In this document: piece after piece, positions 28,293 through 64,000 of the stretch
Layout of the letters: each line of letters starts with the position of its first letter
How positions within the stretch are numbered: the stretch's first letter is position 1
NCBI GenBank assembly: GCA_965645245.1
Contig: OZ287067.1
Location: forward strand, 62,001-126,000
Direction of reading: 5' to 3'
Origin: Massalongia carnosa
Taxonomy: Eukaryota
Length of the DNA: 64,000 nucleotides
Translations under genes and position numbers: made by a program
The notes under the pieces: model-generated
Told to the model about the DNA's origin: nothing
What the model saw: the letters and a program-made list of their open reading frames with translations, nothing else
Database searches by the model: none

Positions 28293-28360
28293 TCACCCAA
28301 TTCAAATTTATACAACCACTACACTTAAATTTACTCTATTCAAATCCCTCTCCTCCAAAA

Positions 28361-39811: not shown

Positions 39812-41037
39812 TCCATCGGTTGGCGAGCTTTCCGTGGAGGTTTGGCTTTTCCCGACTTTGCGACGGCGTTCACACCGTGCTTCGGCTCCTTGTCGTCTTT
39901 AGGAGGGTTGGGACACTTGTTGGCGTAGTGACCCTGTTCTCCGCAGCGATAACATGTCACCTCGTCGGTACTTTCCTTTGTCTCAGCATGCTTTCTTTTC
40001 TGACCCCTTTTACCGTCTTTCGTAGGTTTTGGTTTGTCAGTGTCCTTTATCTCCTCGTTCCTCTTATCTCTATGTGATTTAGTGCGAGGGGGGTGAGAAC
40101 CATTTGGACGCTCATGCTTCGACGTCGTTAAGACATCGTTTTCTCTTTTCTGATTGTTTTCCAGCCTACTGGCCAGAGTCACCAGAGCTTCTCTAGTCCT
40201 TGGAATATTCTGATAGTTGCCTATAGCTGCTCTAATAGACGGCCGCAACTAAGTAAACAGATGAGTCGCTCTTTGTTCTTCGGTATAGGAGGGCAACTGG
40301 TCCTCGAGGCTACTCAAGTGCGCCTCGAAAGCTCTTACCGTTTGCTTCTCTCCTTGCTTGGCTTCGGCAAATAATTGGGCCATATGCAGACCTCGATTAA
40401 CTGGGTCCTCGACAATATTTAACAAGAATTTCAAGTACTCTTCGAAGGTATAATTTTGCATTTCACCGTCTGCCTCATATCGATGCCAAGCTTCCTTAGG
40501 CTCCCCTTCCAGCGATTGCATTGCGAAAGCGATCTTGGATTCATCATCTGGGAAGTCCTCTTTTGCCACGCGAAACGCCACTCTGCAGTTCCGCTCATAA
40601 TCCAGATGTTCCTTGACCGTTTTTCCATGATAGGGACTGACTTTCTCGGGTCTAGCAGCGCGTCTCCTGTAAACAACAACAGGTACTGACTGGCTACTCG
40701 TCATCTCTACATTGTCGTCAGAACGAGGGTTAATGGCTCCTCTCATTACCGGTTCCTTGGATGATCCGGTAGGGTTTGGAGGTTTCGAAGGCTTTTGAGT
40801 TTGTTCTTGCAGTTGCTCAATACTGGCTTTCAAATTCCTTAGACGTACTTCCTTCTTAAGTTCGCTACGCCTGCGCTCAGCTTGCGCTATCTGTTCGTCC
40901 AACGTCAGGGGTTGAATGGGTTCGACTACTTTTTCCATTGGGGTCAGGGCTCCTCTTCCAGGGCCCTCAGAATCCGAAAGTTCTTCGATCCGCTCCTCCG
41001 GCATCATGGTATCAGAGGCAACTTCTTGCGCGGACAT
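39796..41037 (-). pseudogene. Gypsy B gag with CCHC knuckle and one internal TAG (40249-40251)
   Basis: ORFs 40249-41037 and 39796-40248 are in frame; CYRCGEQGHYANKC. Confidence 0.85.
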
Positions 41038-43951: not shown

Positions 43952-46900
43952 TGTTGAAACGCGCCTGGATAATGGGAGGCAGGTTGTCTGGGACGATAAA
44001 GGTACAAGAATAAGTGCTGAATAGCTGAATATTTATTATACCGAATAGCTACCTGATAACGACTGAATAGATAAAATACATGAGAAAGCAACGCCTTATT
44101 ATACCTAAAGAATATTACCCCTATTCGGCTTTGCTAACCGAACTTCGCAACTTTCGAATGTACGAAGCCGAAAGGATTGATAATCTGATGAGGCCATTGT
44201 CGCCATGTATGTCAAAATAGCTATAATAGCTTATTCATCTTCTCGCGGTTTATTATGCCGTAAAAGAGTGATTTGAAATCTCATCCCGCCACATTAGAAA
44301 TCGAACTCGTTAAATATTTTGCGATTACCCAATTGAGCTTAGCTAAAAATAGTTATGCGGGAATTCAAGAAAATGCGGCAACTTAGGAAATTCGCAACAC
44401 TCTCACTACTAAGTTGAATCAGCATTTTCACCCAAAAGAAAATCGAAATATAACAAAGCAATTCTTCGTGATGAATGCTTGTTGGCATGTGTTAGGCCCT
44501 CAAGCCTCAAAAATCTACCTCTTTCAGACCCAGTTTAGCCCGAAGCGGAACGAAGATATCCGGTTTGGTTGGTTTGGTCAAAATATCAGCAACCATCTCG
44601 CGTGTTGGAACGTACGAGGTTTTTACTAGACCGTCAGCGACTACTTCGCGAATATAGTGGTACTGGATGTCGATATGCTTGGTCCGACTATGGTGTTCAG
44701 GATTTTTGATGATATCGAGGGAACCCTGGTTGTCCCCAAAAAGCTGAATTGGCAAGTCGGATACGTGGCCGAAATTCAATTCTTTAATCCAACGCGTGGC
44801 CCATATAATGTTTTTGCTTGCCTGGCATAGAGCAATATATTCAGCCTCAGTGGTAGAGGAAGCAGTAGTCCTCTGCTTTTTACTTGCCCATGTAACTGAC
44901 GCATTGCCGATTAATAGTGTGTGCCCGTACGTTGATTTTCTATCAACAACATCATCCCCATAGGCCGCATCCGCATAACAAACTGGGTGCCCAGCTTTGC
45001 TGTGATCATACACAAGAGCTAGGTCAATTGTTCCTTTCAGATAGCGAAGGACCCTATCTAAGGCGATTCGATGCCGGAGCGAAGGATCCTGGCAATACTG
45101 GCTTAATTTGCAAACCGCAAAGGCTATATCCGGTCGTGTGCCTACCATGGCGTACATGAGGCTCCCGATTCGTTTCTGATACTCCAACTGGCTAGTGCGG
45201 ATTTCAGAATGATCAGAAGGAGTAAGGGCGTGTAAACCGTCGATAGGAGTAGAAACAGGATGGCAATCCTCCATGCCGAAATCACGGAGGAATTTTCTGA
45301 TGTAGGTTGATTGATCTATAGCCAATCGTTTCTTTTCTGTATCCCGTCTAATGCGAATGCCTAGTATAAAGGAGGCTTTTCCTATATCTTTCATTTTATA
45401 TTCAAGAAAAAGCTGTGCTTTTACAGCTTTGATTGATGCCATTGTTTTTGCGAAAATTAGTAAATCATCCACATATAATGCAATAATCACGTGGGTGGAT
45501 TTATTAAGGAACACACAGCTGTCTGATGTAGTAGGTGCAAACCCTATTGATTTCAGGTGTTTTTTCGCTTTTGTGTTCCATTCGCGACCTGATTGTTTCA
45601 GACCATATAAGGGTCGGAGTAGGTGTAAAACGAGATCCTCGTGCTTTTGATTATGAGGGATTTCGTAGCCCTGTGGAATTTCCATATAAATTGTTTCAGT
45701 AAGGTTGCCTTTCAAGTAGGCATCTGGCACATCCATTTGCTCTATTTCGAAACCAAAATACGCTGCAAATGCCATCAGCATCCGAAGAGATTCCAGTCTC
45801 AATGTAGGAGCAAAGTTTTCCTCGAAGTCTATCCCATAGACCTGAGTAAATCCTCTGGCAACGAGACGGGCCTTGTAGCGATCAATAAGGCCGGATACAG
45901 TATACTTCACCTTGAATACCCACTTAGAGGTGATGATATTCGAATCTTTAGAAGGTCTTTTGACTAGCTCCCAAGTGCTGTTTGCAATGAGTGCATTCAG
46001 CTGTTCCATAATAGCTATTTTCCATAGCCTATTTTCCGCGCATTTTATAGCTTCGCTATATGAGGATGGCTCGATTTTTCGTTCAAGGAGGTCAATAGCA
46101 TGCCGACCAGTTTCATTGTCATACCTGTATTTATCATATGATTTGGTCGTACAAGTACTGCGACGGGTAGGTTGGTTCTTGCTTGACTGGGTTGATGAAT
46201 CCTTTGTATTTGCATTTACATTAGCATTTCCCCTCCCTTTTGGTTTCGAAGCATCCGAAGGGTTTTGAGCAATAATATCAGGATTGTTTATTTGTTGTTC
46301 TTCAATTCTTAACTCGATATCTCTCACTGATTCATTGTTACCTTCTGAGCTTTCATCATTTTGAGATGTTTCCTGGTTCTGATTAACCGAGTTTTCAACC
46401 TCGTTATCGACATCGTCATCGCTGTCATCATTATTGTAGCTCGGTAGCATGGTTGTTGGTGTTTCTTCTAAATTTCGCAGTAAATTTCCTCCCGTCACGT
46501 GTTCCAAAAATTTCACTGAGGTATGCCACTGGATTTTCCGCGTGCTGGGATTATAAATTCGTGCTTGCTGATTCGAATGATAGCCAACGAAAATTCCTTG
46601 AAAAGATACTCGATCCAGCTTGGCCCGATTTTCACTAGGTATGTGCACATGGACCACACACCCAAAAGTTCGAATATGGCTGACGCTAGGTTTGCTGCCC
46701 TCCCACAACTCGTAAGGTGAGAGGTCATCGTGGCCGGCTGGCAGTAGGTTTCGTAAATAATTGGCTGTTTTGGCCGCCTCGGACCAAAAGTTCTGAGGTA
46801 ATTCAGACCAGACCAGCATTGCTCTGGTCATCTGAATAATAGTTCTATTGAAGCGTTCGGCCACCCCGTTTTCCTCGGGCGTGTAGGCCGTAGCATATTC

Positions 46901-49427
46901 CATCCGAATGCCTTCGGCGTGGATCTGTTTCTCAAACTTCTGATATTCTCTTGCGTTGTCGCATCGGTATATGGCTACCTTTTCACCTGATTGGAGGCCA
47001 ATTGCCGTCTGCCATTCGCTGATTTTCTGGTAAATCTCCTTTCGAGACTTCAAACAAATAAGCCAGGACTTCCTGGTAAGGTCATCAATAAGGGACACAA
47101 AGTATGCGTGTCCTTCGATGCTGCTAACTCGATATGGGCCCCAAATGTCGGTGTGGACCCTCCCTAGCCTTCTATCTGCACGCCTCGGGGTGCCTCTATT
47201 GACTATCCTAGTCAAATTTGAAAAATTGCAAGTGGTGCAATCCAGATTTTTGAGTGAAGGTAAGTCGATCTGATCTATATCCGTCACGTGGTAGGATAAT
47301 GCCCTAAGCCTCTTCGGGTTTACATGACCCATACGCGCATGCCACAGCGAATATAAGGCTAACTTTGAAGCATTCGTTAAAGATTTAATAGTCCCATTTT
47401 TCGATATGTTGAGCGATCCAGAGGCCTTCGAGGATTCATCAATAATTTTGCCCTGATTGACATCGATATGCTCCGCAGTTTCGACCTCGTCAAGAGTCGA
47501 AACGACTTTTTCATCCTCCTCTAGCGTAAAATTCTCATTGTCCGAAAAATCCTCCGTGGTCAAAAGTGCCACCTGAGAGTTATGCAAAAGATACATCTTC
47601 CCTTTCAGAACTCCGCGAGCCACCAAGGTACCTCGTCGCCGAATTTCTACTCCATGCTTCTTGAATAGAACACTGAATCCTTTTCGGTTGAGGGCTGAAA
47701 TAGAAAGCAGGTTTGCATCCAAATCCGGAACATGCAACACCTCTTTCATAATAATAGTCTGACCATCTAGATCAAACTTCACGTTGCCAATGCTTCGTGC
47801 ATGCAACTTCTCACCATTTGCTACTGTAATGGAGGTCTTCACAGCCTTCTTGCTGGTGAACATAGCTTCGTTCGGGGTCATATGTCTGCTAGCTCCAGAG
47901 TCAATGATCCAAGAAATGGGGTCGCCCTCATCGGTTTCCCGTGCCATCCATGCACTATCCGAGTTGCTGTCCCGTTCCTCATCTTCTTGTGCAGCACGTG
48001 CACTTCCTGACTTTCTCTTGGGTTTTTGCTGCGGCCTTTCTTCTGACTATCCTGACTGGTTTTGGCTTCTTCTTTTTCGTCGGGTCTAGTTTTATTGTTT
48101 TTCGCATATGCCTTGCCTTCATCAGTCGCAAGCCATTCGAAACACTTAACTTTGTAGTGTCCAGGTTTATCGCAGTGGAAACATTTCCTAACCTCATTGC
48201 CTTTTGCAAAGGCCTTATTTGCAATTTCCCCTTGATTGCCCTCGTCCTTTACCTTCTGCTCCACTAGCTTCAACCGCTCCTTCGTGTGAGCTAAGGTCAG
48301 CTCCCGCATGTCTTCCAGATGGTATTTGGCCATAGTATAGGCCTCGTGGTCCACTGAGTTGATAAGCGTGAGAGCAACGTCTAAATCGGTGGGGGCTTCC
48401 GTTTCCTTAATGTCTCGTATAATACTCTGTAGGCGAGATAATTCACTCGATATATCATCGATGGTCTCCGCTGACCCTGCCTTGTAGTTAAAGAATTTCC
48501 TCTTCAAGAAATTCAAACGGCCCTGACCCTGGGCCCCATGCACTTTTCTAAGTGCCTCCCACATGGCATGCGACGAGGCCAGCCCTTTCACGTGATTATG
48601 CTGAGCGTCGTCCATGTTGGTATAAATCCAGGCCTTTGCCTGAGCATCGTCGAATCTCCAGGCCTTGTAATCCACTGGCCTGATATTCACGTCTGGAAGA
48701 AGTTCAGAACCATTCACGATTGACCATAGCATTTTCGCATCCAGAAGGAGTTCCATGCCGTCGGCCCAGCTCTGGTAGTTATCCGAATTTAGGTGAGTTA
48801 CTTTTATCTCACCTTTCAAAATGGCTTTCGTATAAAGGCCAACTAACTTTGGGCCTCCAGGAATACTTTCCGGTGACGCTGGCCCTCCAGCGGAGTCAGG
48901 GGTAGGTGCATTGAAATTGCCAGACATGTTGACGATACGTAAACCCGATGGCAGCTAGGTGCTTGCCGGGCTCATAACCTGTTGAAACGCGCCTGGATAA
49001 TGGGAGGCAGGTTGTCTGGGACGATAAAGGTACAAGAATAAGTGCTGAATAGCTGAATATTTATTATACCGAATAGCTACCTGATAACGACTGAATAGAT
49101 AAAATACATGAGAAATCAACGCCTTATTATACCTAAAGAATATTACCCCTATTCGGCTTTGCTGACCGAACTTCGCAACTTTCGAATGTACGAAGCCGAA
49201 AGGATTGATAATCTGATGAGGCCATTGTCGCCATGTATGTCAAAATAGCTATAATAGCTTATTCATCTTCTCGCGGTTTATCATGCCGTAAAAGAGTGAT
49301 TTGAAATCTCATCCCGCCACATTAGAAATCGAACTCGTTAAATATTTTGCGATTACCCAATTGAGCTTAGCTAAAAATAGTTATGCGGGAATTCAAGAAA
49401 ATGCCGCAACTTAGGAAATTCGCAACA
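43952..49427 (-). mobile_element. Ty1/Copia LTR retrotransposon B
   Basis: 448-bp LTRs (43952-44399, 48980-49427); TSD AAGGA; GGTTATGAGCCC PBS-like motif on the minus strand. Confidence 0.95.
44507..48927 (-). pseudogene. Copia B gag-pol (one frameshift between gag 47878-48927 and pol 44507-47947)
   Basis: CFHCDKPGHYKVKC; WIIDSGASRHM; WHARMGH; ENGVAER; YVDD; ADAAY, KHIDIQYH. Confidence 0.9.
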
Positions 49428-52158
49428 AAGGATAGATAATAGGATAGACTGGCTATGCGCAAAATCGCAAGCCCTCCACCGGATGGAAGAAATTTCAGGA
49501 ACGAGCCACCAAATGTACTATAGTAGGATACGAAGGCGATCACATCTATCGAATGATAAATCCACGGGGCGCGGTCATGCGTTATTCCAATGTTCAGTGG
49601 ATAGATAACAATCCCCCAACTCCTCCTTCCTTATCATTCTCTCAAACTAAAAGAGCCCTACAGGTTGGACAGTCAGGACCGCCCACAAGAAAGCGAAAAA
49701 ATTACCCATCATACGGACGCCCCTCATACGGACTTAGTCGACGCTCATGAATCCATAGAATCAATTCCCACTGGACCTCTCCCACCAAACGCTAGACAAG
49801 AGGCATTGGCAAACCAACGGCACATTGAGCCTCGGTCCCAGGCAGATATTTTCTCTAAGCACCCAGAACTTCGTGCCCCCTCGCCTGACCCACTAGTTTT
49901 TTTGGCCCTTCTTGCTCGAGCCAATGACCCGGAGCCATACGAGCCTAGATCCTATAAACAGGCCGTAGACAGTCGGTAGGAAAAGGATTGGCGAAGGGCA
50001 ATGCAGGAAGAAATCGACTCTATCAACGAAAATAATACCTGGATCCTCACCTCCCTGCCCTCGGACCGCAAAGCCCGGCGAGGCAAATGGGTTTATAAAA
50101 TCAACTAGGCCCGGCTGGCGAGATTCTTCGTTACAAGGCTCGATGGGTGGTCAGAGGCTTTGAGCAAGTGAAAGCATTAACTACAATGAGACTTTTGCTT
50201 CAGTAGTGAAGCCAATGAGCTATAAAGCCATCGTCGCTATCGCTGCAGCTAATGACTGGGAAATTCACCAAATGGACGTAAAAACAGCCTTCTTGTACGG
50301 AAGAGTGGACGAGGAAATCTACGTGGAGCAACCAACCGGTCTGGATGACGGGTCAACGAGAGTTTGCAAGTTGAAGAAAGCTCTTTATGGCCTGAAACAG
50401 TTGTCTAGAATCTCGTATGAAACGATCACTATTTTTTTCAAGTCTCATGACTTCGTTCCAGTCAATGCCGACCTTAGCGTTTTCGTTAAAGAAGGGGTTA
50501 TCGTAGCCATTTATGTCGATGATTTAATCATCACTGGCCCTTCTTCTTCTTCCGAGATACAACGTGTCAAGAAACTGCTGAGCGACGAGTTCTCGATGTT
50601 TAATTTAGGGCCTATTAATTACTAGCTGGGCATGACGATAACTCGGGATCGGGCCAACAGGATTCTTCGCCTTGGTCAGCAGGCCTATCTGGAAAAAGTA
50701 CTACGCGACCATGGTATGTGGGACACTTAACCCTTGGCTACCCCGATGGATGGGCGACTGGAGGCTGCACCAGAGGGCCATCAGGCCACAGATGACTCTC
50801 GCCTCCGCCACCAATCAGCGGTAGGCTCTCTCATGTATGCTATGCTAGGCACCAGGCCTGACTTAGCCTACATCGTACCGGTGGTCAGCCGCCATGCCTC
50901 GAACCCGACCGACACGCACTGGAAGGCAGTCAAACGCATCTTTCGATACATCAAGGGCACTCTTCCGTTGCAGTTAACATACAAAGGTCGCCTACAACCC
51001 TTGAACTGTTACACTGACGCGGATTGGGCCAAAGATCATCATACCCGAAGGTCTACTACCTCTGGCTTCGTGTTTAATGTTGGTAGTGGCGCTATTAGCT
51101 TGTCTTCCAAACGACAACCGACCGTAGCCCTATCTTCATGCGAAGTCGAGTACATGGGTCAGACCCAAGCCACCAAGGAAGCCGCCTGGTTGTCTAGTCT
51201 TCTCGACCAACTCTCAACACCTCAAGTCCTTGGGAATAACTATATCCAAACCCAGAGCACCTCTGTAGCCCTTGCCTACTTGCCTATATCTTTCGCCCTA
51301 AACGCTATCATCATTCACTGCGACAATCAAGGAGCAATGGCTTTGGCCAAAAATCCCCAGGCACACGCGCGGAGCAAGCATATCGACATCCAATGGCACT
51401 ACCAAAGAGAGAAGATCGAAGACAAATCAGTGGAATTTCGCTATGTTCCTACCGAAGAGCAGGTAGCTGTCGGCCTAATCAAGGCCCTACCAAACGATAA
51501 ATTTGTTGTCTTTCGAAAGGCTTTAGGCTTAAAGTAAAACCAGAAGCCCTTTGTCGTAAAAATCCGACCTTAACCCCCGAAAAAAAAAGTATCACCCACA
51601 GCTAAGCCTGCGGGGGTGTTTTCGTACATCACCAGCAGCATTAGCCTGCGGAGTACACTGACTCACCTGCAGGTGATCCACTAGGAAGCATGATATTATA
51701 CTGGAGTATGTGGGAATTATTGAGTTTCTCTTTATCATGTGGGAGAGCTATTTCAGTGCCTGAGTGGGAGTGTTAGAATGTACAAATCAGGCTACTTCAT
51801 TTCAGCCGCACTCACCTTCTACCGCACGAGTATAGCGCACGCTAACTAATGGCTAGACGTATCGCTAGTCTAATACTAGGATACCGTACATTGTCTATAA
51901 ATCTAGCTATTCCCACTATATAGAACAAAAGCAAGCGTTCTATCCTCTATTGACTATATATTACTATACTGCCTTTTGATAACATCAGGTTCTGAACATC
52001 AGACGGCCCATTTCCGAAATGCTACTTATGCTACTTTCGGGTTGAAAGATGCAGATATGTCAAGGGACCGTGAACTAAGCCGAGGAGAAGATAATTAACC
52101 TCGACTACGATTTCCCTTACTGTGGCGGGCTTTATCACGATATGAAGATCAGCCGGTC

Positions 52159-52437
52159 ATGAATGACAACAGGCTTGCAGCGTTCAATGAACACGAAGTC
52201 ATCCTGAGAATGATCGAGGATGCTAAAGTGGTAGATCTGGAGGCACAAGATCAGCACTGGCGGACAGCGTTAATTTGGGCAGCAGAATTAGGGCACGAGA
52301 AGGTTGTGGAGATGTTGCTGGACAAGGGCGCGGAGGTGAATGCTCAAGGGAGAGGGTTTGACGACTTCCTACTATTTGGAACAGTTAGAGCGCACCGCTT
52401 AGGCCTCTCTGCTAACGCGGGCGAGTGTAAAACCTAG
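52159..52437 (+). pseudogene. Ankyrin-repeat fragment (probable tail of a lost ANK gene, possibly an NLR)
   Basis: DLEAQDQHWRTALIWAAELGHEKVVEMLLDKGAEVNAQG matches the ankyrin consensus. Confidence 0.75.
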
Positions 52438-52636: not shown

Positions 52637-54960
52637 CTACCACTCATTGGGATACTTAAGCGAAGACTCTGTATGAGAATGTTGAGGACCCAGCTTGTGT
52701 TTTTGGAGCTGAAAACATTCCTTTAGCAGTGAGAGAGCCTCATCATTGCGGCCTTGAGACTTCCACGTGAATGCAAGGTTGCTCATGCTAGTCAGCGTGG
52801 AAGGATGCTCCGCCCCTAGCACCCTCTTTCTCGTCTCCATCACTTGCACCTCCAGCTCTTCGGCCTCCGTCCATCGTCCTTGATTCCTGTACGTCGACGC
52901 AAGATTGGCCATGCTGAGCAGCGTGGAAGGATGCTCCGCCCCTAGCACCCTCGCACTCGTCTCCATCACTTGCACCTGCAGCTCTTTGGCCTCCGTCCAT
53001 CGTCCTTGATCCCTGTACGTCAACGCAAGATTGTTCATGCTAGTCAGCGTGGAAGGATGCTCCGCCCCTAGCACCCTCTTTCTCGTCTCCATCACTTGCA
53101 CCTGCAGCTCTTCGGCCTTCGTCCATCGTCCTTGTCCCTTGTATGCCAAGGCTAGCATAGCCATACTATTCAATGTCTCTTCATCCTCTGGACCAAGCAC
53201 TTTTTGCCTGGTTCTTTTTGCTTTTAGGGCCATTGTCGCTGCTTCAGCGTAACTCCCTTTCGCCCACGCATACCATGCAGCGTGATATAGTATCAAGGCC
53301 CAATCTTGTAATGAGCTTTCGACAGCTGGCTCCTGCGCTACTGCCGACTTTGCGTGAGGAAAAAGCGTTGGATACTTTGTCCAGTTCTCGTAATTTCCCG
53401 TCGGAAATACTGTACAGAGATTCTTGATGTATTGCTGCTTCCATCTTTCGAGCTGATTGGATGCTTCTAGCCACTTTCTGATCGCTTGCTGCACTAGCCC
53501 GTGCATCTCAAAGGTGGTTTCATCTATGCTGATGGTGATGAACGAGAAGTTTCTCAAGACAAGTATGTCGTCTTCAAACTCGTCGACGCTGGAATCGGAT
53601 ACGGTATCCTTATTGCTATCGTCTTCGTGGTCATCATCTTCGTCATTTCCAGCATTTTCTCCCGTATTTTCATTTCCTGCCTCGTTTTGTGTCTTGAGTA
53701 AAGCCTCAGGAATTCCCTGTCGATCGAAAAAGCTCATAAGCGACAGCAGATTAGCTGCCGAAGGCTTGATCTGATGAATATGATCAAACGATATTTGCCA
53801 GGTTATAATGATTGAATTTTTAGCATCCAGGTCCCTGCGAAGATGTCCCGCTTCGTGATTCAACAGACTAGTCTTTCTTTTATCATTTTTATAGAACTCT
53901 TTTATGTATTGTCGAACAGAATATCTTGGTACTCTTTGTCGAATGTATGCGGCCGCTTGAACGATGGCAAGCGGCATGACTTCGAGTGCTGCTGCTAGCT
54001 CAGCAGTATCATCTCTGTCCATCTGTTCTCCCAGCTTCTTTTCAAGGAGCGCTAGCGCATGTGTATCGTCCATCGGCTCAACCGGTATTATGTCTCTTTC
54101 TTCTGCTAGCCGCAATGCCACGCTTTTAGTCCGGGAGGTGATGAGAATCGAGCCGTTTCGACTCTGAGGTAGATATGCTAACAGTGATTGCGTGAGCCCG
54201 CTTCTAATGCCGCAATCCTGCGCCTTCTGGCCTGTAGCATGAGTTTCGAAAAGCACAGTAGCTTCGTCGGCATTGTCGAGGACCAGAGCCCACTTTCCGT
54301 TCTTTTCGTCGCGTAACCACTTGTCAACTAGCCGGAATATGTCCGCCTTTGGGTCCTCCCTGCCAGGAATCTTGACTTGCTCTGCAACATCCCGATAACC
54401 TTGCTCGATACGGGCTGCATTACTAGCGTGTATCCAGAACACCCACGTCGTCGGCAACTGCTCTCTGATTCGATAGCAGTACTCGATGGCAAGCTGCGAC
54501 TTTCTTTGCGAAAGTAAGCTATTAGAACTAGCCTGAGGCCCTTTGGCTTACCCAACGCCGCCTAGGCCGACAAGCGCTACCCTTGATGCTGGCGCGGAGC
54601 ACTTTTCGTGGATCTGATCAAGTAGCGTTCCGCGATCGACGAAATCAGGGTCGCGGGGGAAACGAACAGCAGATGATGGGCTTGGTGGGGTATCGGGTCT
54701 TTCTACAAACGCAGAATGCTATCAGCCTTGGCTCACAGGACGCTATATTATTGTGAATGGCGACTTGCCTGGATATTGAACAATATTGTTTGTCTGAGAG
54801 CCTAATCAGGATTTAGCATAAGATCAATATCGATGTGAACAGGACGCAAACCAATCACTTTCGCATAGCCTGAGACGTCACCGATCACAGTGCCTTGGTT
54901 GCCAGAAATCGTGCCAAAATCCTTCGTGCCTGTAGAGACTACTGGCGTGTTACCGGCCAT
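52637..54960 (-). CDS. Fungal NLR: short N-terminal putative amyloid motif + NB-ARC + TPR repeats; exons 54960-54852, 54801-54769, 54702-54552, 54503-52637 (719 aa)
   Basis: Manual splicing (GT-AG, GC-AG, GT-AG) gives an open frame with P-loop GLGGVGKS, Walker B LVLDNAD, ITSR, PLAI.QAAAYI, MHGLV and 42-aa TPR repeats. Confidence 0.9.
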
Positions 54961-55304
54961 TGCTGCGTCGGAAGATTGTAGACATTAGAGCTCGGAGCTA
55001 TATTGAATAAGACTTGAAAACCATTACCTTTACCGTGCTCAGGACCGCACCTAGGCTCGGCCGGAAACTCGACGCCCAAGACTTTCTAAAAGCACTGTTC
55101 ATCTCTAAGTATAAATATAGGCACGGACTCGCCGATGGAGGGCCCCCCGCCATCATGCGGGATAGATGGCTGATAGAGCCAAGGCTATACACGTGCTGAA
55201 GCGCCTGGTCTCTCCATGCAGGCGGTATCACAATTATCTCGCATAAGTCATAGTGCTAAATTTGAAGCACGACCCCTCTGTAGTATTGCGATGACAACGC
55301 CAGC

Positions 55305-56568
55305 ATGGCCGAACCGTACGGATTAGGCGACCCTCTTTGATTCTCCAGACGCGAATATAGAGTACGCACCAGATGTCATTTCTCGTCCGGGTTGCTTTGT
55401 ATTGACCCAACAGTATTGTCTTCGTCCACGGGCTCGGCGGCGACAGAGTGAAAACTTGGACATGGGAGGGTCGAGATAGATCGCTGTTGTGGCCGCAAGA
55501 TCTCTTACCTCAAGCCTGCCCAACAGCTCGCATCCTTCTTTTGGGTACAATGCGGACTTTGCTCACTTCTATCCGTTTGTTGGACCGAAATTCATCCCGG
55601 AGCATTTGACTATTGATGATCACGCGACTGCAATGTTTCAGAGCCTAATCAGTCTCCACGAGAAAACCAAAACTGTAGGAATCGGCGCACCCCTACCCTT
55701 TCCACCAGAAATATGCTAATAGGATGTCTATGTCCAGGCTGAACGGCCGATTATTTTCGTCTCGCACAGCCTAGGGGGTCTCGTGTGCGCCAATGCGTTG
55801 TCAAGGCACAATGGTACCGACATTGCTAGCACTACCCTCGTAGAGAGAACGATTGGAGTCGTCTTCCTTGGAACGTCCTTTGAGGGATCGTCAAAAGCAA
55901 AATGGGGAAGCAGGGCTCTACAGATACTGGGCTGGATAAGCACCACGCATAAGCAGGATATAAAGGAGCTTGAAGAGCGTTCGGCAAAGCTCATCAGCGT
56001 TAACGAGGCCTTTCAGAAATTCCTGAAAGCACGGGATCGTTCAGAATCAAGAGAGTTTGTGGAAGTAGCTTGTTTCTTTGAACAGTATGCTATGTATGAG
56101 GGAGGGACGAAGATGGGATTTATCGTGCCCAAGGAATCGGCTTGCCTGCCTGGTATCGATCCACAGTCGATCCAGGCGAACCATGTTGATATGTGCAAGT
56201 TTGAGGATGAAGACCGAGAGGGATACAAGAGAATTTCACAAAAGTTGGTTCAATGGATATCGGATCTTGATAGTCGATCCAAGGGGTCTGGAGAGGATCG
56301 CCAGGTCTGACATCTCTTTCGCGCGCTTGAAGTTAGCTGTAAATCAACAGAACCATTCGGTTCGTATGGGCGATGTTAACTTTAGGGGCAAAATCGATAA
56401 AAATCGAGGTGTGATTATGGGTCATGCAAATAGTACGGCCACAGAAGGGGTTAAAATATCTGGGAGTAGTATCACTGTAAGGATCACCTATCCTTTCGAT
56501 AGCGATGTACAAGCTGACAGAAAATAAAGAATACTTATCATGGCATTAACCCAAAAGACTCTGTGTAG
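55305..56568 (+). pseudogene. SesB-like alpha/beta-hydrolase with C-terminal putative amyloid motif; exons 55305-55361, 55414-55674, 55738-56304, 56351-56476, 56530-56568; two 1-bp frameshifts as sequenced
   Basis: DIVFVHGLGG, WPQDLLP, ARIL/FGYNAD, RPIIFVSHSLGGLV nucleophile elbow, FLGT.F.GS, NHVDMCKF; tail rich in G/N and beta-branched residues. Confidence 0.85.
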
Positions 56569-57199
56569 ACCGAGGGATAGGCAATCATTGCGGAGTAATT
56601 CTAGGAAACTATTCAGGGACATAAAATAATCAATTGACTTTTTGACGTCTTTCAAAACAAAGTTTTTTCGCGCAGTCATCAGCTTCGGGTGAAAGTTGAC
56701 TCCTTGTGAGACGTGAAGAGCTCGCATGACAAGAGTTCCAGGCTTCAAATATGCCGCAGCTAGAGGGGGCCTCTTAGCAGAGAATGCTTATCCAACTTAT
56801 GTCCGATCTCTGAATCCTGCCCTTGCTTCCGTAAGCACTTCAGAACGAAAGTCTGACAAGATCTCAAATCAATATTGAATGAATAAGCATCTTACTTCAT
56901 TGAGCTACGTAGATGCAATGATGGAGATTTTCAAAGACGTACAATCAGTGCTTACGCCTGTCGAGCCTTTGATAAAGTACGCTAAAATTGTAAAGCGATT
57001 GAGCATCACAATCGACGACATAGCTGAAGATGAGACGAGCAATTACAATACATCAAGTCCTGACATCTATTCCTATCATTTTCATTACGTCAGGTCAGTA
57101 CGTTGACATTATTGAGATTTGTTTCGACATTTCAAAGCCTTTAAGCAAGGACTGAGGTTGACAGAAAAACCTTCACTGATCTAAGTGATAATTGACTTG

Positions 57200-57487
57200 C
57201 GATTCACAGAGATGAAGTGCAAGCGACATCAAAAGAAGATCATGATCAAGCATTGCAGCTGCTGCTGAAGAAAAGAGCCGATGAGAACGCTCGAGGTGGA
57301 GCCATTGACGATGCAACTGCAGACGGCGTCATTTAATGATCATGATCGAGTGATGCAGATATCGCTCGACAAAGAGGCTAATCTCAACGCACAAAGTGAA
57401 GGCTGTGACTACACATTGTGGACGGCATCAGCGAAAGGTCATGATAAGGAGATGCAAATGTTACTTGCCGCTGGTGCAATAGGGTAG
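57200..57487 (+). pseudogene. Degenerate ankyrin-repeat relic
   Basis: LQTASFNDHDRVMQISLDKEANLNAQ...TLWTASAKGHDKEMQMLLAAGA. Confidence 0.65.
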
Positions 57488-59029: not shown

Positions 59030-62000
59030 TGTCACAATGAAGAACCAAATAGCTTCCTGTCAAGGACTGGGTTGGGAATTGAACTAATGTTCCTAGGAAT
59101 TGGATTGGATGATCAAGATGTCTTTATTAATGAGGCTATAGCTAGGAGGTGGTTTGCTATACAAGACGTCGGACGAGGAGTCAGCTATCTACTGGATATG
59201 TCCTCTTTTTATACCTGAGCCAGCCCCTTCTTTCTCATGTTTTACCTTCACCCTAGATGAGAGATTTGGGTGATGGTGGCGGCGATAAGGTGGAGCGATA
59301 AGTGGGCCAGTGGATGTGATCGTTCTAGCGATAAGAGGGTATAGTGGAGTGAGGAGATTGGTGGAGTGGAGAAAGGGGTTTATTCAGACTCATACCGAGG
59401 ATGAATCTGAATAGGCTTTCAGGTGGCTTTTACCTCGATCGCCGCTTGGCGGTTCGGGGTAATCAATTGGGTTTTAACTCGAACTTTATTTCATGACAGT
59501 AGCTCCCCCTTCGAAGGCTGAGCTCCTGCGATGCTGGTTCAGTCATGACACTGACATCGAGGAATGAGACAAGGGATTATGTGAGGCCATGGCATGAGGG
59601 TAAGCTTCATGAAATTCATCGATTGCTTGCTGACAATTGGTTAGCAGGTTAAAAGGTTCCCATGTCATAGGATGTCCTTCCCAATTCACAAGATATTTGA
59701 GGAGCGGTGGTTGATAACGTCGATCCGTCTTTGAGTTGAGAATACTGTTGACATACCACTCGCGTTGACCGTCTGTACCGACTATAGGGTTTCGAGGTTC
59801 GTGAAGTTGGCCAGGAAGAGGATCGTCTGCATCGTGCTGCAGAAGGTTGACATGAAAAACGGGATGAACTTGTAGCGTGTCGGGAAGTTCAAGCTGAACG
59901 ATAAGAGGATTGGAAAATACTTTGGTGACCCTATAGGGGCCGGCGTGTCGATCATTCAGTTTGGCTGCCGGTCGGGCTGTCTGAAAGTTTCGAGTATTTA
60001 ACCATACCATATCATCCACGAGATAGCGGGGGCACGGGCGACGATTCTCGTTAGCGGTGGCTTCGTAGGAGGCTTGTGCGATTAACATTTCGTCATGAAG
60101 ATGAGCATCTACATCCTTCATCTTATCCACGAACTGATTAGCGGCAACTAGGTTGGCTCTTCCTTGAGCGGTCAGATCATGGGGTAGAGGTTCTTCGGGC
60201 TCGAATCCTACTCGAGGATGTTGTCCGTGATTGGCTAGGAAGGGAGAAGCGAGGATACTGGAGGAGTCGGTGTTGTTGCTAGCGAATTCAGCACCTGGTA
60301 AGTACTGAGCCCAGTCGTCTTGCATATAATTGACATAGGCTCGAAGATAGTGCTCCATGGTCGCATTAGCCCTTTCGGTTTGGCCGTCGGTTTCAGGGTG
60401 AAAGCTGGTTGATAACCTAGCATCAATCTTAAGACGTTTACACATGAGTTCCCAGAAGTCGGAGGTGAACTGAGTGCCTCGATCGGAAGTCAAGGCGTCG
60501 GGGAGTCCATGTAATTTCCACACGTTCTGATAGAAGGAGCTGGCAGCTTCTTCTGCCTCCATGGAGGTGGTAGGGACAAAGTGTCGCATCTTGGAGAGAC
60601 GGTCGATGAAGACCAGAACATATCGATAGGTGACACCCATGAAGGTACTAGGAGGCAGTGGTCCTACATAGTCCATAGAGACATCACGCCATCGACGTTC
60701 AGGCGGGGATAGAGGGCGCAGCCAGCCTTGATATCGTTGACGGGACGGTTTGGATCGCTTACAGGTGTGACAGTTGCGAATGAATCTTTTTACGGTTTGA
60801 TGCATATTGGGCCACCAGTACGATCGACTAATCAACTCATAACACTTGGAGCGGCCAGGTTGACCACCCGCTACACTGTCGTGGGAATGCTGGATGAGAC
60901 GAAGTCTCAGGCGATCTGACTTGGGTACGTACTTGCGATCGCGAAAATAAAGAACTCCATCTCTATTCTCACACTCGGCTAGCTGAATTTTAGGATGATG
61001 ACGGACGTTGTCATGGAGTGCGTCTAGGATTTTTTATGCGACTTGATCTCGAAGTTGAGCCTGTTCCCATAACAGTTGAGTGGGGACATCTAGAGGGTCT
61101 TGATCGGGATCGACTTGATCGGTAGGTTGATCCAACTGGGGTTCGCCAGCTCGGTCGGGTTCGATGAACTCGGGATTGGGTTCAATGAACTCGGGGTCGG
61201 GTTCGATGAACGTAGGGGCTAGCATTATGGTGGAGAGGAAGCTTGCTGCAACTTTATCATCTAGGTTGTGAGTTTTCAGTATGGTTTGATGCTGGTATTT
61301 TTGTCTTTCGTCGGTTTCATCCCCTCTTTAGGGAGGTCTCCTGATCGACGAGTTAATGCATCTGGCTTTCCTCCAGCTTTTCCGGGTCGATAGACTATTT
61401 TAAAGTCAAAACGAGATAAGAATTCAGACCAACGGGCCTGTCTGCGATTGAGCTGCTTCGTGGAAGCGAAGTATTCCAAGTTTTTATGGTCTGAAATTAC
61501 GCTAATGGGAAAAGCAGAGCCTTCCAACTCGGGTCTCCATTCTTCAAAGCAACGGACTATGGCCATTAACTCTTTGTCGTAGATCTCGTAGTTGCATTCG
61601 GCCGGATTGTGTTTTTTGGAGAAGTAGGCGATGGGGCGCAGCACGTTTTCATCATCATATTGCGAGAGAATACCAGCGGAGACATAATCGGAAGCGTCAG
61701 TTTCGACGATGATGGGTTTGTCAGGGTTGAAATGCAGAAGCACTTTTTCGGAGGTAAAAGCCTTTTTGAGAGTATTGAAAGCTTGCTGACATCGATCAGT
61801 CCAGTTGAACTCGACTTCCTTCTTGGTTAGATTCGTTAGTAGACCGGCTATATTACTGAAGCCATAGATGAATCTTCTATAGAAGTTAGCGAATCCCAAA
61901 AAGCTTTGAACATCCCTCACGTTGATCGGGGTTGGCCAGTTGGTTACGGTTTCGACTTTGGCAGGATTCATTCTGATACCCTCGGTGGTTACGATTAATC

Positions 62001-64000
62001 CTAGATATGCAACTTCTTTAACATGGAATTTGGATTTGGTGATGTCGCATTGTAGCCCGTTTTCTATCAATTTGTTGAGAACTCTTCTGACATGGATCTC
62101 GTGTTCACCTTCGATTTCACTATAGATAAGGATATCATCGAGATAGGCTGTACAGAAATCGTCAAGAAATTCTCGAAGAATGTCGTTGATGAAATGTTGA
62201 AAAGAGGCGGGTCCGTTGCACAGACCGAAAGGCAAGACCAGGGATTCGAATAGGCCGAAACGAGTTCGAAAGGCGGTGAGTTCCTCATCCCCCTCTTTGA
62301 TTCGAAGGCGATTAAAGGCTGCAATGATATCTAACTTGGTGAATATCTTGGCCCTGGCTAATCGATGCAGGGTTTCAGCAATCAGGGGAAGTGGATATCG
62401 ATTTTTTACGGTGACTGCATTGAGACCTCGATAGTCCACGCAAAAGCGAAGTCCTCCTTCCGGCTTTTTTACGAACATAACAGGGGACGCGGCAGGCGAT
62501 TTGCTCGCTCGAATGAAACCTTTAGCCAGGTTCTCATCCAGATAGCGACGAAGTTCTTGAATCTCATCACGGCTCATGCCGTAAAGAGCTTGATTGGGTG
62601 CCTGAAAGCCTTCTTTTAGCTTGATGGCATGGTCATAGGGTCGATGATCGGCTAAGACGTCAGAGTCTTTTTTGGAAAAGGCGTGCAATAGGTCGTGGTA
62701 TTGCTTGGGAAGGAGGAGGGCTGGATCGACGTTTTTCTGCTTGCGATATTCGTCTAATTCTTGGGCGGTCACTGATGTCTGCAGTGTCAGGGCTTGGTTC
62801 ATGCGAAACAGGGCTAGATGAAGTTCCTTTTCACTAGGACTGTGACGCGGGTTGGGTTGATAGGTTGGTTTCGGTTTATTCAGACTACTATGGCGACTGA
62901 ATTCGGTTGCGGATTAGATTTCGGTTTTGGGTTCGGTTGGGGTCACTCCGAGGAAGCGATCGATTTCTTTCAAGGAGAGGCTAAACATCTCGTGGTTTTC
63001 TTTGCGTCCGAGACAATTGAAGTTCATGGCGCTTATCTCGCAGATGTCCATGACTGAGGGTTTGATTTTTTGCTGAGCGGCGTGTCTTTCGACCGAAGTT
63101 CGTTTGGAGGAGGGGCTTCGGTATCGAATTTTTGGTGGGTTGCCTTGTTCAATCGCTTTTTCAATGCGACTGACGTCTTTCATCTCCTCCTTCACGGAGG
63201 TCTCCTGGCCGACGTTTTTGGGCGTGATTGTGATTTTTGAGGTTTCAATTGAGGTTTCAATTGAGGCTGGATTTATTTCCTCGGATTTCCACACCTCCTG
63301 ACTTTCAGCAGGCGAAAGAAATTCTTCCTCAGTATGAGCTTGTACTTTGACCGGACGAGGAGAGCAGTGAGCGAGGCAGAAAGGAGACGCCAATGATTGA
63401 GAGTTGGTGTTGAAATCGATATGGGCTTGATGCCGACGCAGCCACGGGTGTCCGAGAACAATGGGGTATGTTTTCAATCCAGTTACGAAGAGAAACATTT
63501 TTCCGTGTGTCCGTTTAGATCCATGATTACTTCGGCCGCATGAGTGATGTTTCCAGTCAGGGCCGGTTGACCGTCAAAACCTTCGAGGCGTCGAGCGTAT
63601 TTCAGAGGATGAAGAGGGATTTGATTAGTTTGCGCGAATTTCTTGTCAATGAATGCATAGCCGGATGCACCACAGTCAATCAAACTAAGAGTTTGAATTC
63701 GAGATCTACCGAGACGTAAAGTACATGAAACCACTAAGTGGCTATCTCTAAACGCCTCTTCAGACTCAAATTGCTCCAAAGCGGTTGCTGCAGAAAAGCG
63801 AGTGTTTGATCGGAGGGGGGGAGAAAAAGAATTGGCTAGCAGACAAGAAGAAATGAGAAATGGTTCCTGCGCGCGACGATGCGCAGGACCTAGGCTTTTT
63901 TCGAGTCTTCGAGCTCGGAAATGGAGGTCGTATCTGATGAGCGAAGACTGGTTTTCTTATTAGGACAGTCGATGGCTGTCTTCCCCGGGTGTTTTTGCTT
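59030..64000 (-). mobile_element. Ty3/Gypsy chromovirus LTR retrotransposon C (continues beyond the window)
   Basis: Candidate 3' LTR 59030-59498 (TGTCA...TGACA) preceded on the minus strand by PPT AAGGGGGAG; pol domains; gag end at the window edge. Confidence 0.88.
59543..63890 (-). pseudogene. Gypsy C pol (PR, RT, RNaseH, IN, chromodomain) with several stops and frameshifts
   Basis: [45 protein letters not shown] across ORFs 63483-63779, 62914-63498, 61276-62802 and 59543-60835. Confidence 0.9.

Follow-up and report, generated by a model that had tools for sequence, protein, structure and literature searches.

A divergent NLR/SesB-like hydrolase locus in Massalongia carnosa and a candidate family of ~40-residue amyloid signaling motifs

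Results

The window, a 64,000-nucleotide stretch of the Massalongia carnosa assembly (GCA_965645245.1, contig OZ287067.1, positions 62,001 to 126,000; coordinates below count from its first letter), carries a head-to-head pair of genes encoding an NLR receptor and a SesB-like hydrolase. The locus lies in a transposon-rich region. Its features are as follows.

52637..54960, minus strand: NLR gene (NB-ARC/DUF7779/TPR_10), 719 aa, 4 exons, intact frame (spliced by coordinates; Pfam)
54852..54960, minus strand: NLR exon 1, receptor-side motif MAGNTPVVSTGTKDFGTISGNQGTVIGDVSGYAKVI(G) (coordinate splicing)
54802..54851, minus strand: NLR intron 1, 50 nt, GT-AG, skipped in an RNA contig (run X15, record 9)
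54769..54801, minus strand: NLR exon 2, (G)SQTNNIVQYP, with which the motif ends (coordinate splicing)
54703..54768, minus strand: putative NLR intron 2, 66 nt, GC-AG, donor GCAAGT (model only)
54552..54702, minus strand: NLR exon 3, ERPDTPP linker to the first part of Walker A (linker HMM, 81.4 bits)
54504..54551, minus strand: NLR intron 3, 48 nt, interrupting GLGGVG/KS; in the X15 RNA contig, 54552 joins exon-4 letters (loose end)
54961..55304, no strand: shared divergent intergenic region, 344 bp, between the ATGs at 54960 (minus) and 55305 (plus)
55305..56568, plus strand: SesB-like alpha/beta-hydrolase (DUF676/Abhydrolase_6 type), 5 exons; a pseudogene here
55326..55340, plus strand: frameshift 1, exon 1; relatives carry two more bases (X2 and X5, but not X1, have CC behind 55330)
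55532..55545, plus strand: frameshift 2, exon 2 (ARIL/SFGYN); relatives carry one more T (behind 55535 in X5, X15 RNA and a minor X1 contig, not X2)
56351..56476, plus strand: effector exon 4, effector-side motif NHSVRMGDVNFRGKIDKNRGVIMGHANSTATEGVKISGSSIT (57.4 bits with an effector HMM built without the window row)
56477..56529, plus strand: putative effector intron 4, 53 nt; homologues read on ...NTYHG[IV].P like the spliced model
56530..56568, plus strand: effector exon 5, NTYHGINPKDSV and TAG stop at 56566-56568 (translation of the model)

The spliced NLR protein opens MAGNTPVVSTGTKDFGTISGNQGTVIGDVSGYAKVIGSQTNNIVQYP-ERPDTPP, its first ~47 residues forming a G/V/N-rich motif, and ~90 residues precede the Walker A sequence GLGGVGKS that spans intron 3. 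Pfam assigned DUF7779, TPR_10 (E = 4.7 × 10−61), TPR_12, and weakly NB-ARC (E = 0.0019, short of the cutoff, which the homologues P0044 and P0077 exceed); the protein thus has a NOD-type P-loop module followed by TPR repeats. Its homologues are up to 92% identical. A Pfam scan of exons 1 and 3 gave no match at E ≤ 10. The protein thus lacks a folded N-terminal domain, in agreement with the initial annotation, which had described an NLR with only a motif ahead of ERPDTPP and had correctly placed the two ATGs 344 bp apart.

The proposed exons were compared with RNA from run X15, which derives from a relative ~90% alike. Introns 1 and 3 of the NLR were spliced there as modeled, and so were introns 1 to 3 of the effector. 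NLR intron 2, which was postulated because the frame otherwise meets an in-frame TAG, was retained in the only RNA contig available for it; translation of that transcript would end just past the motif. P0077 (VIASQTNNNFQYP) and P0176 (LIGSQTNYIAQHSG) also include the exon-2 segment in their gene models. Skipping exon 2 together with intron 2 would also keep the frame. Effector intron 4 lies outside the coverage of the X15 contigs; an RNA contig of depth 3 spans 56483-56580. The NLR RNA contig of the relative extends to at least 55135, into the intergenic region. The receptor-side copy of the motif sits in a separate 109-nt first exon; exon-1-only ORFs of relatives run into intron 1 past ...VIG, and P0001 to P0004, among the closest gene models, start downstream of Walker A.

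The divergent gene encodes a protein with the nucleophile elbow SHSLGG, and its exon 3 weakly matches DUF676 and Hydrolase_4 in Pfam. Forty-three hydrolase homologues were found, among them sigma-bearing relatives and a Nannizzia gypsea entry named "SesB protein." Fold, GxSxG elbow, and SesB homology all identify a SesB-like alpha/beta-hydrolase; its reading frame, however, is not intact. The protein had initially been given as ending at ...NTYH. Instead, it continues with GINPKDSV before the TAG at 56566-56568, and two frameshifts, near 55330 in exon 1 and 55535 in exon 2, had been missed. Among contigs from other runs, the CC behind 55330 is carried in X2 (69.2/69.2) and X5 (432/432) but not X1 (0/4543.7), while the T behind 55535 is carried in X5 (335.6/335.6), X15 RNA (16.6/16.6), and part of X1 (403.7/2982.6) but not X2 (0/62.2). 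In addition, the window hydrolase carries S in place of a P that is invariant across 26/26 homologues. Because related lichen-associated sequences lack the frameshifts and are transcribed and spliced, we conclude that the hydrolase is a decaying pseudogene in this genome; the NLR is intact. The initial proposal of a receptor-effector pair therefore holds for the layout, a divergent NLR and SesB-like gene with one motif family, but not for function: with its effector frameshifted twice, the pair cannot work here, and this copy of the hydrolase supports no claim of function.

Between the two motifs of the window itself, the match is modest (P ~ 0.01). Smith-Waterman alignment recovered the alignment first proposed by eye (13 identities in 40 columns; score, 40), against a mean of 24.7 ± 4.9 in 5000 shuffles, of which 0.96% reached 40 (0.58% when both sequences were shuffled). 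BLASTP reported no match between the two at E ≤ 100. At the family level, hhalign of 24 NLR-side against 33 effector-side instances scored 27.8 (P = 1.2 × 10−6; 27 columns) in that same register, a score reached by 0/200 column-shuffled controls (mean, 8.7; maximum, 15.2). With an HMM built from NLR instances only, 16 effector C termini (18.3 to 9.2 bits) outranked all 23,547 decoy ORF pieces (best, 8.1 bits). The NLR-side HMM placed the window effector exon second of 1974 window ORF pieces (11.6 bits; E = 0.018), the best non-self match; built without the window row, it gave window NLR exon 1 72.1 bits. In the opposite direction, the effector-only HMM scored the window NLR at 3.4 bits (E = 0.45; rank 12/121), below several PP-type paralogues, and P0077 at 3.1 bits, no better than such paralogues; only P0044 headed the list (7.8 bits; E = 0.019). 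At the profile level, the receptor-side consensus TG-K-F--IS-N-G-V[IVL]GD-SG-A-VIGSQTN and the hydrolase C-terminal consensus MGDVN[YF]---I-NN-GVVMGHA-STA-DGVRI-GS, each ~40 residues long, belong to one family.

This family recurs where a signaling motif had been expected, at NLR N termini and effector C termini. An exhaustive profile search of 1.84 billion representatives returned 26 matches (E ≤ 0.001), 24 of which have the receptor-side motif at or next to the start, although 20 of these 24 are exon-1-only ORF calls with the downstream gene out of view. All four full-length proteins with an N-terminal motif are NLRs: three of the NB-ARC/TPR kind (the window protein, P0077, and P0044) and P0176, an NPHP3_N (NACHT-type)/ankyrin receptor. 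A word-limited motif search found no NLR among its 18 matches. The effector-side motif follows a variable linker in 33 SesB-like homologues, whose genera we take to belong to the Dothideo-, Eurotio-, Sordario-, and Leotiomycetes, and also terminates the PNP_UDP phosphorylase P0165 (64 bits; E = 2 × 10−12), encoded on a contig equal in size to the one that, in this fungus, encodes a SesB-like protein with the motif. Among the lineages checked, the motif was found at least in Lecanoromycetes and Dothideomycetes. Judged by these sequences, the motif is modular, shared among NB-ARC/TPR and NACHT/ANK receptors and SesB-like and PNP_UDP effectors.

A motif-bearing NLR and effector were adjacent in just two cases, this locus and a relative's contig spanning both 5′ ends (X5 record 22); no second pair of this type was present in 80 metagenome loci. 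Lindgomyces ingoldianus has both an NLR, P0044 (..AISDNRGVVLGDASGHA..), and a hydrolase, P0125 (..KIENNQGVVMGHAYSTA..), which are not neighbors, since they lie on contigs of differing size. Another locus, L055, holds a head-to-head NB-ARC NLR/SesB-like pair sharing a different motif (13/27 identical by eye), which by its sequence offers a precedent for the architecture. Sharing of a motif between an NLR N terminus and a nearby effector C terminus, the generic mark of an amyloid signaling motif in the accounts of PMC9815663 and PMC12261475, is what the sequence presents here.

The shared module could instead be a conserved non-amyloid interaction or regulatory peptide (a docking strand or a membrane-binding or autoinhibitory tail), its likeness on the two partners reflecting heterotypic binding or nothing functional. 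The motifs contain several charged residues (K, D, R, and E), the similarity within the window pair is weak, and the amyloid reading draws on analogy with known systems. However, family-level similarity far exceeds that of the controls, and the module, invariably at a terminus and behind a variable linker, is common to two NLR classes and to enzymes of two unrelated folds. AlphaFold2 modeled the tail of the hydrolase P0121 (residues 290 to 344) at a pLDDT of 34 to 61 without regular secondary structure, whereas 10-residue blocks of the core mostly averaged 64 to 94, with dips to 43 to 56 at residues 72 to 82 and 157 to 180; the effector tail is thus conserved yet predicted to be unfolded. Sharing among such different partners, terminal position, linker, and disorder make up the known signature of amyloid signaling motifs as described in PMC5485727 and PMC9815663. 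We consider a non-amyloid peptide improbable.

We then compared the motif with described classes. The initial annotation had judged it unlike HET-s/HRAM, sigma, or PP. In support of this, neither window motif matched the Pfam HET-s, sigma (PF17106), or PP (PF17046, the PP model according to section 3.3 of PMC12261475) families at E ≤ 10. A local PP HMM found no match at either motif exon of the window and gave the effector-side family at most 5.5 bits (E = 20), against 35.6, 31.6, and 19.9 bits for true PP instances (loci L038, L040, and L057). The published patterns for PUASM (FxGxGxQxxGxGxF) and GDQN (GxGDQN), as printed in section 24 of PMC9815663 and section 3.3 of PMC12261475, occur in 0/24 NLR-side and 0/33 effector-side rows. 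These Pfam, local HMM, and pattern tests thus assigned the motif to none of PP, sigma, HET-s/HRAM, PUASM, and GDQN, the HET-s/HRAM comparison covering the Pfam profiles (PF11558 and related).

The judgment did not hold entirely for PP, since the effector HMM core NN-G-V-V-M-G-H--G-T and the PP core NN-G-[LF]-Q-[VA]-G---G can be aligned in the same register. This raises the alternative that the motif is a divergent PP/RHIM member, its central Gln having drifted to Val/Ile on both partners, and that the locus is an ordinary PP system of the PNT1/SBP type. Canonical PP motifs occupy the same place in 44/120 paralogous NLRs listed, and 3/33 effector-side rows read G-x-Q-x-G (G-V-Q-x-G) at the core with the downstream half still shared (2/33 with the stricter expression G.Q[LIVAG]G). 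Profile comparison by hhalign scored PP against the effector side at 14.8 (P = 0.0015) and against the NLR side at 14.2 (P = 0.0027), but these values fall inside the range of the shuffled controls noted above. Moreover, the core Q is present in 0/24 NLR-side versus 44/44 PP rows, the module is about twice the length of PP (17/18 aa in PMC3321046), and the PP profiles discriminate as described. Drift from PP is, in our estimate, unlikely; what the motif keeps is only a remote PP-like register (N-x-G-φ-x-φ-G) with V/I replacing the hallmark Q.

The motif might also be published already, as PF01048_015 ("PUASM 2") or one of the unassigned NLR-side motifs (NLR17/19/20/34) of Wojciechowski et al. 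2022 (PMC9815663). PF01048_015 is located at residues ~8 to 28 of NB-ARC(/TPR) NLRs and at PNP_UDP C termini (S5 and S1 Tables of that paper), and the window family likewise occurs on a PNP_UDP protein. The Fusarium N termini printed in S2 Data share the short elements VV-TG and IS--GN with the window motif; yet these 36-aa sequences (core ...YGSNVVTGISATGN...) lack TG-K-F, N-G-VV-GD-SG, and VIGSQTN and align by eye only with a 6-residue gap. Ten core strings from both sides are absent from the text-readable supplements, with GVVAG alone occurring once in an unrelated alignment, and the rows examined in the S5 Table pair SesB-like effectors only via PP-cluster and sigma-cluster motifs. This comparison covers printed N termini, table rows, and string searches, and leaves prior publication, in our view, a slim prospect.

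Discussion

Taken together, these data point, with a probability of roughly 0.6, to a divergent receptor/effector pair of the PNT1/SBP kind bearing a distinct, conserved, and modular motif family of ~40 residues that would act by amyloid templating. Most likely, the scheme is the known one of amyloid templating between NLR and effector, and the motif family is new. If the locus works as NWD2/HET-S and PNT1/HELLP/SBP do, binding of a ligand by the TPR array would oligomerize NB-ARC; the N-terminal modules, once clustered, would take a cross-beta fold; and this fold would template itself in the disordered tail of the effector, switching the enzyme on. Amyloid formation, templating, and activation are all inferred by analogy with these systems. 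A more specific version, to which we give slightly less than even odds, is that the family is an undescribed "Q-less" amyloid signaling motif of ~40 residues that has a Val/Ile ladder where PP/RHIM cores have a Gln ladder and is interchangeable among NB-ARC/TPR and NACHT/ANK receptors and SesB-like and PNP_UDP effectors.

PMC12261475 puts the number of amyloid signaling motif families associated with fungal NLRs at four to five (HRAM, PP, sigma, and PUASM 1-2) and also proposes a provisional GDQN motif. Every added family enlarges the sequence space known for templated cross-beta signaling, and this one, if real, would be a single module shared by two classes of receptor and two of enzyme. Because the PP/RHIM glycine register is kept with a hydrophobic residue at the hallmark Gln, the role of the Gln ladder becomes directly testable by cross-seeding. 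The family would have been overlooked because an intron cuts off the receptor-side exon in most gene models; since most of the closest models omit the 109-nt first exon, motifs of this kind may be undercounted in published NLR censuses. The locus is also a case of a receptor outliving its adjacent effector. With the neighboring hydrolase decaying, the intact receptor is either orphaned or signals to another copy.

Among known systems, NWD2/HET-S of Podospora anserina (PMC5485727, PMC4344463) is the model for the proposed mechanism, in which receptor oligomerization templates amyloid in the effector tail; its effector, unlike the SesB-like enzyme here, is the HeLo pore-former HET-S with two 21-aa repeats. 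PUASM, PF01048_015, and GDQN, in the accounts of PMC9815663 and PMC12261475, are likewise profile-defined and recently described motifs of NLR N termini and enzyme C termini, and PUASM, like the window family, can occur on a PNP_UDP phosphorylase. The sigma system sesA/sesB/het-eN of Nectria haematococca (PMC3321046) similarly has a SesB-type effector whose C-terminal motif is shared with the N terminus of the neighboring NLR, and in het-eN as in the window NLR a 5′ intron hides the receptor motif from ORF tracks. The sigma tails themselves (P0156 and P0160, flagged by PF17106; ...GGTQNISKGSG-HFPGA-FSG-V-FG) are unlike the window motif, and both C termini are absent from the NLR-HMM match list. 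PNT1/SBP/HELLP of Chaetomium globosum (PP; PMC5485727, PMC3321046) differs in several respects: the window showed no third gene of HeLo-like type, its effector gene is a pseudogene, and the window module is longer than PP and lacks its central Gln. As described in those papers, however, it too sets an NB-ARC/TPR receptor without an effector domain beside a SesB-like lipase, with a short G/N-rich motif at the receptor N terminus and the effector C terminus. The core register N-x-G-φ-x-φ-G-x-x-x-G is common to PP and the window motif, and true PP motifs occur on paralogues of the window NLR.

Structure of the gene pair

The initial annotation described an NLR gene and a SesB-like hydrolase gene (the effector) as a head-to-head pair sharing an amyloid-type motif. 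That observation stands, subject to corrections: the peptides, coordinates, and spacing it gave are correct except at the hydrolase C terminus, which was read too short and ends eight residues further on. Splicing by coordinates gave an NLR gene of four exons on the minus strand, from 54960 to 52637, with a product of 719 amino acids. The hydrolase is a five-exon plus-strand gene, and its ATG (55305) lies 344 bp from that of the NLR.

54960-54852, minus strand: NLR exon 1
54801-54769, minus strand: NLR exon 2
54702-54552, minus strand: NLR exon 3
54503-52637, minus strand: NLR exon 4
Between these exons, minus strand: NLR introns 1, 2, and 3, of 50, 66, and 48 nt
56351-56476, plus strand: effector exon 4, which carries the motif and reads NHSVRMGDVNFRGKIDKNRGVIMGHANSTATEGVKISGSSIT
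Ending with TAG at 56566-56568, plus strand: effector last exon, adding NTYHGINPKDSV before the stop

The NLR N terminus is MAGNTPVVSTGTKDFGTISGNQGTVIGDVSGYAKVIGSQTNNIVQYP; it is followed by an ERPDTPP linker, a Walker A motif interrupted by intron 3 (GLGGVG/KS), DUF7779, and five TPR_10 repeats. The Pfam NB-ARC match on the large exon is weak (E 0.0019), and the close homologues P0044 (Lindgomyces ingoldianus) and P0077 (Lobaria immixta) pass the NB-ARC cutoff. Omission of exon 2 would also keep the frame open (..KVI-ERPDTPP), much as in ..HIVARPETPP of P0044.

RNA contigs demonstrated transcription of the locus in a relative. The public RNA run X15, a lichen metatranscriptome, is ∼90% alike to the window and therefore represents a related fungus. 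A 1991-nt minus-strand contig from this run leaves out 54802-54851 (NLR intron 1) and passes from 54552 into the letters of exon 4, so that intron 3 is spliced; the 66-nt GC-AG intron 2 is retained, the contig being unbroken over 54552-54800. In a 1020-nt plus-strand contig, effector exon 1 continues directly at 55414, introns 2 and 3 are absent as modeled, and the sequence stops at 56462, short of intron 4. Two introns, NLR intron 2 and effector intron 4, are putative and were placed entirely by homology: the SQTN.. segment is present in P0077 and in P0176, a further NLR homologue, and effector homologues read on ..NTYHG[IV].P. A contig of X5, a run labeled as a DNA-type lichen metagenome, is without the 52-nt effector intron 1 (GT..AG; window 55361-55414; depth 88, shorter side 30); this contig may stem from RNA or from a processed copy, on evidence too thin to interpret.

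Lesions in the hydrolase gene

The hydrolase is a SesB-like/DUF676 alpha/beta-hydrolase with the nucleophile motif SHSLGG. Overlooked in the initial annotation, two frameshifts break the gene: one in exon 1, where MAEPYGLGDPL runs into a stop and FDSPDANI follows in the next frame, and one at ARIL/SFGYN. Contigs from four public runs were aligned to 54500-56600, among these runs X1, the best-matching run and perhaps the source data of the window itself. Because run contigs carry the bases in question, the window is short of two bases and of one base relative to intact relatives.

Bases absent from the window hydrolase gene, by sequencing run (value with the bases/total)
CC behind 55330: X1, 0/4543.7; X2, 69.2/69.2; X5, 432/432; X15 (RNA), no row
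T behind 55535: X1, 403.7/2982.6 (one minor contig); X2, 0/62.2; X5, 335.6/335.6; X15 (RNA), 16.6/16.6

Assembly error as the origin of the frameshifts was rejected in part: X1 agrees with the window at both sites, though perhaps as its source, and X2 has the deletion at 55535. Since X2 is a run of another study, the 55535 deletion is not an assembly slip; the lesion at 55330 was found in no sequence other than the window and X1. One minor X1 contig retains the T at 55535, a hint of a further copy or strain. The window hydrolase also has Ser (LGTSFEG) where Pro is invariant in 26/26 aligned homologues. Together, the two frameshifts and this substitution indicate that the effector is a decaying pseudogene in this genome. 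An alternative donor (55316 to 55414, from ATG 55305; MAEP-IVFVHG...) was rejected, as it avoids only the first frameshift, leaving the second, and drops the conserved GL-DPLFD-P-A--D segment. Unlike the neighboring hydrolase, the NLR frame is intact; given that no complete product can come from the adjacent effector gene here, the receptor would be orphaned or working on another copy.

Overlapping and extending beyond the effector last exon in another frame is an ORF piece at 56550-56621 (plus strand; ..VDRGIGNHCGVILGNYSGT, then a stop). Of the 1974 ORF pieces in the window, it ranked second for the effector HMM (9.8 bits, E 0.071) and third for the NLR HMM that leaves out the window row (8.4 bits, E 0.18), and is similar to Penicillium-type tails (..VDNRGITNHGVVTGNNYGT..). 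Either a remnant of another motif copy or chance may account for this piece. Contigs of relatives depart from the window sequence at 56569-56585.

A motif family shared by receptors and effectors

BLASTP of the two window motif exons against each other gave no alignment at E<=100, and Smith-Waterman alignment with shuffles was used instead. The two peptides share 13 identities in 40 columns and score 40, compared to 24.7 ± 4.9 in shuffles (p 0.006-0.01), suggesting a resemblance only modestly beyond chance. An HMM of 33 effector tails scored the window NLR at 3.4 bits, rank 12 of 121 NLR N termini and below several PP-type paralogues; because it fails to single out this NLR, the two window motifs are little evidence by themselves. 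With a receptor HMM built without the window row, the effector exon was the best of the window's 1974 ORF pieces after the NLR exon (11.6 bits, E 0.018). Complex prediction of the two motifs from two alignments scored 0.01, which counts neither for nor against binding. The case for a shared motif depends on the relatives.

On the effector side, 43 hydrolase homologues were found and the 34 of hydrolase size were aligned; 33 of these carry S[VI]-MGDVN[YF]---I-NN-GVVMGHA-STA-DGVRI-GS---Y behind a variable Gly/Lys-rich linker (P0153, whose motif is not alignable, was dropped, leaving 33 rows, with P0142 and P0150 as poor fits). On the receptor side, 44 of the 120 NLR homologues listed have a canonical PP motif, and P0077 and P0044 are the only ones among them with the motif found here. 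An exhaustive search of 1.84 billion representatives with a profile of the window NLR, P0077, and P0044 returned 26 proteins at E<=0.001. The motif is present in 24, and 17 of these 24 begin with it; the remaining two, which match part of the profile repeatedly, are a tape-measure protein of phage type (Pfam PhageMin_Tail) and one protein without a family match. As in the window, 20 of the 24 are ORF calls of 43-105 amino acids that end in ..VIG and then run into intron-like sequence. P0176, which is full length, combines NPHP3_N (NACHT-type), winged-helix, and ankyrin-repeat regions. A word-limited motif search gave 18 matches (17 hydrolases, one PNP_UDP protein, and no NLR), which is weak evidence given the word filter, and a protein search with the tail of the homologue P0125 gave no usable match.

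The receptor-side alignment comprised 24 rows: 21 of the 24 matches, with the degenerate P0186, P0189, and P0190 excluded, plus P0077, P0044, and the window. Compared by hhalign, it matched the 33 effector-side rows over 27 columns (score 27.8, P 1.2e-6) and recovered the register of the initial annotation; when the columns of the effector alignment were shuffled 200 times, scores were 8.7 ± 1.9 (maximum 15.2). In a noncircular ranking, a receptor-only HMM was run against 47 effector-homologue C termini and 23,547 six-frame ORF pieces of metagenome loci, and its top 16 matches were all effector tails (18.3-9.2 bits; best decoy, 8.1 bits).

The effector-side profile also matches the C terminus of P0165, a PNP_UDP phosphorylase from Zopfia rhizophila (64 bits, E 2e-12; ..HSIYVGDTIYHGPIDSNSGVVMGNAYTEARDGIRITGSTT..). 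The source contigs of P0165 and of the motif-bearing SesB-like P0151 from the same species are recorded at equal size; they appear to be one contig. The module thus terminates two unrelated enzyme folds and opens two NLR classes. In an AlphaFold2 model of the homologous hydrolase P0121, built on a 26-row alignment, 10-residue pLDDT block means in the hydrolase core were mostly 64-94, falling to 43-56 at residues 72-82 and 157-180; linker and motif (residues 290-344) had block means of 34-61, and regular secondary structure was absent from this monomer model.

Genomic surroundings and metagenome loci

The pair forms a ∼4-kb island amid LTR retrotransposons and DNA transposons. Mobile elements dominate window positions 1-64000, and several are interrupted by stops.

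10293-16857, 28271-32148, 36047-39898, 59543-62913: Gypsy-type elements
18417-22765, 44507-48954: Copia-type elements
50164-51537: degraded Copia-type element
Elsewhere in the window: DDE_1, Tc1-like DDE_3, and MULE transposases

Short ankyrin-repeat-like ORF pieces lie on either side of the pair, at 52099-52437 and 57196-57487 (both plus strand; ..ALIWAAELGHEKVVEMLLDKGAEVNAQG.. and ..TASAKGHDKEMQMLLAAGA..), and may be remnants of an ankyrin-repeat gene, conceivably an NLR, disrupted around it. At 23153-23797 (minus strand), a TPR_10-only fragment (E 3.3e-52) whose sequence closely matches the NLR C-terminal portion (52637-54547) looks like a truncated NLR duplicate; an NB-ARC part was not found upstream of it. 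A MULE transposase ORF lies in the same region (25777-26463).

Across 80 metagenome loci, most SesB-like relatives are fused to NB-ARC or have NB-ARC next to them on the same strand. Only L003 has an effector-side motif of this kind (30.2 bits), and no recognizable NLR was found beside that effector. Twelve loci (L010, L013, L017, L025, L030, L032, L038, L044, L045, L049, L056, and L067) have an NLR linker and P-loop downstream of the SesB-like domain on the same strand, an order indicating either SesB-NB-ARC receptors in one protein or tandem pairs; the two parts of L038 are separated by a PP motif (35.6 bits). At L055 (8700-11400), an NB-ARC NLR and a SesB-like hydrolase stand head to head and share another terminal motif (NLR, ..SFHNIGPVSAGIVQQGAGHAARDLYNG..; effector, ..TFNNSGLIEADVFQQGTGNAGRDFYQG..; 13/27 identical by eye).

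Comparison with known amyloid signaling systems

Neither motif exon matched a Pfam family at E<=10, which excludes HET-s, NACHT_sigma (PF17106), and PF17046, the last being really a PP model according to PMC12261475. A local PP HMM made from the 44 paralogous NLR N termini scored true PP instances (L038, L040, and L057) at 35.6, 31.6, and 19.9 bits but this effector family at no more than 5.5 bits; in the window it reached at most 6.3 bits and matched neither motif exon. The published PUASM and GDQN patterns matched no receptor- or effector-side row, and the sigma tails of more distant SesB homologues are plainly unlike this motif. For PF01048_015 ("PUASM 2"), the comparison was made by eye with its Fusarium NLR N termini in S2 Data of PMC9815663 (core ..YGSNVVTGISATGN..); these are without the conserved elements of the motif described here and alignable only with a six-residue gap. 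Ten strings from the motif core of both sides had no counterpart in the readable supplements of PMC9815663, bar one unrelated GVVAG, and no published report of the motif was found in the accessible later literature.

The proposal of a new or divergent class is favored by this lack of a match to HET-s, sigma, PP, PUASM, or GDQN and tempered by a remote likeness to PP: NN-G-V-V-M-G-H--G-T of the effector HMM aligns with NN-G-[LF]-Q-[VA]-G---G in PP paralogues. The hhalign scores against PP, 14.8 and 14.2 (P 1.5e-3 and 2.7e-3), are of a size that the highest-scoring shuffles also reach, and G-V-Q-x-G occurs in 3/33 effector rows. At the core position, 24/24 receptor rows have V or I and 44/44 PP rows have Q. 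From these sequences, we read the motif as a separate family with a hydrophobic core residue on both partners, possibly derived from PP.

The interpretation as an amyloid-signaling receptor-effector pair is supported in part. We estimate a probability of about 0.6 that the motif is an amyloid-type signaling module; that it is also truly undescribed falls somewhat short of an even chance. Most likely, the family is a new variant inside a known signaling scheme. On the model of NWD2/HET-S and PNT1/HELLP/SBP, sensing through the TPR repeats would be followed by NB-ARC oligomerization, clustered receptor N termini would take a cross-beta fold, and this fold would template the effector tail, activating the hydrolase. 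Known amyloid signaling motifs are, according to PMC5485727 and PMC9815663, strongly conserved yet unfolded, terminal, and transferable modules; conserved, predicted to be unfolded, terminal, and transferable itself, the module described here has their look.
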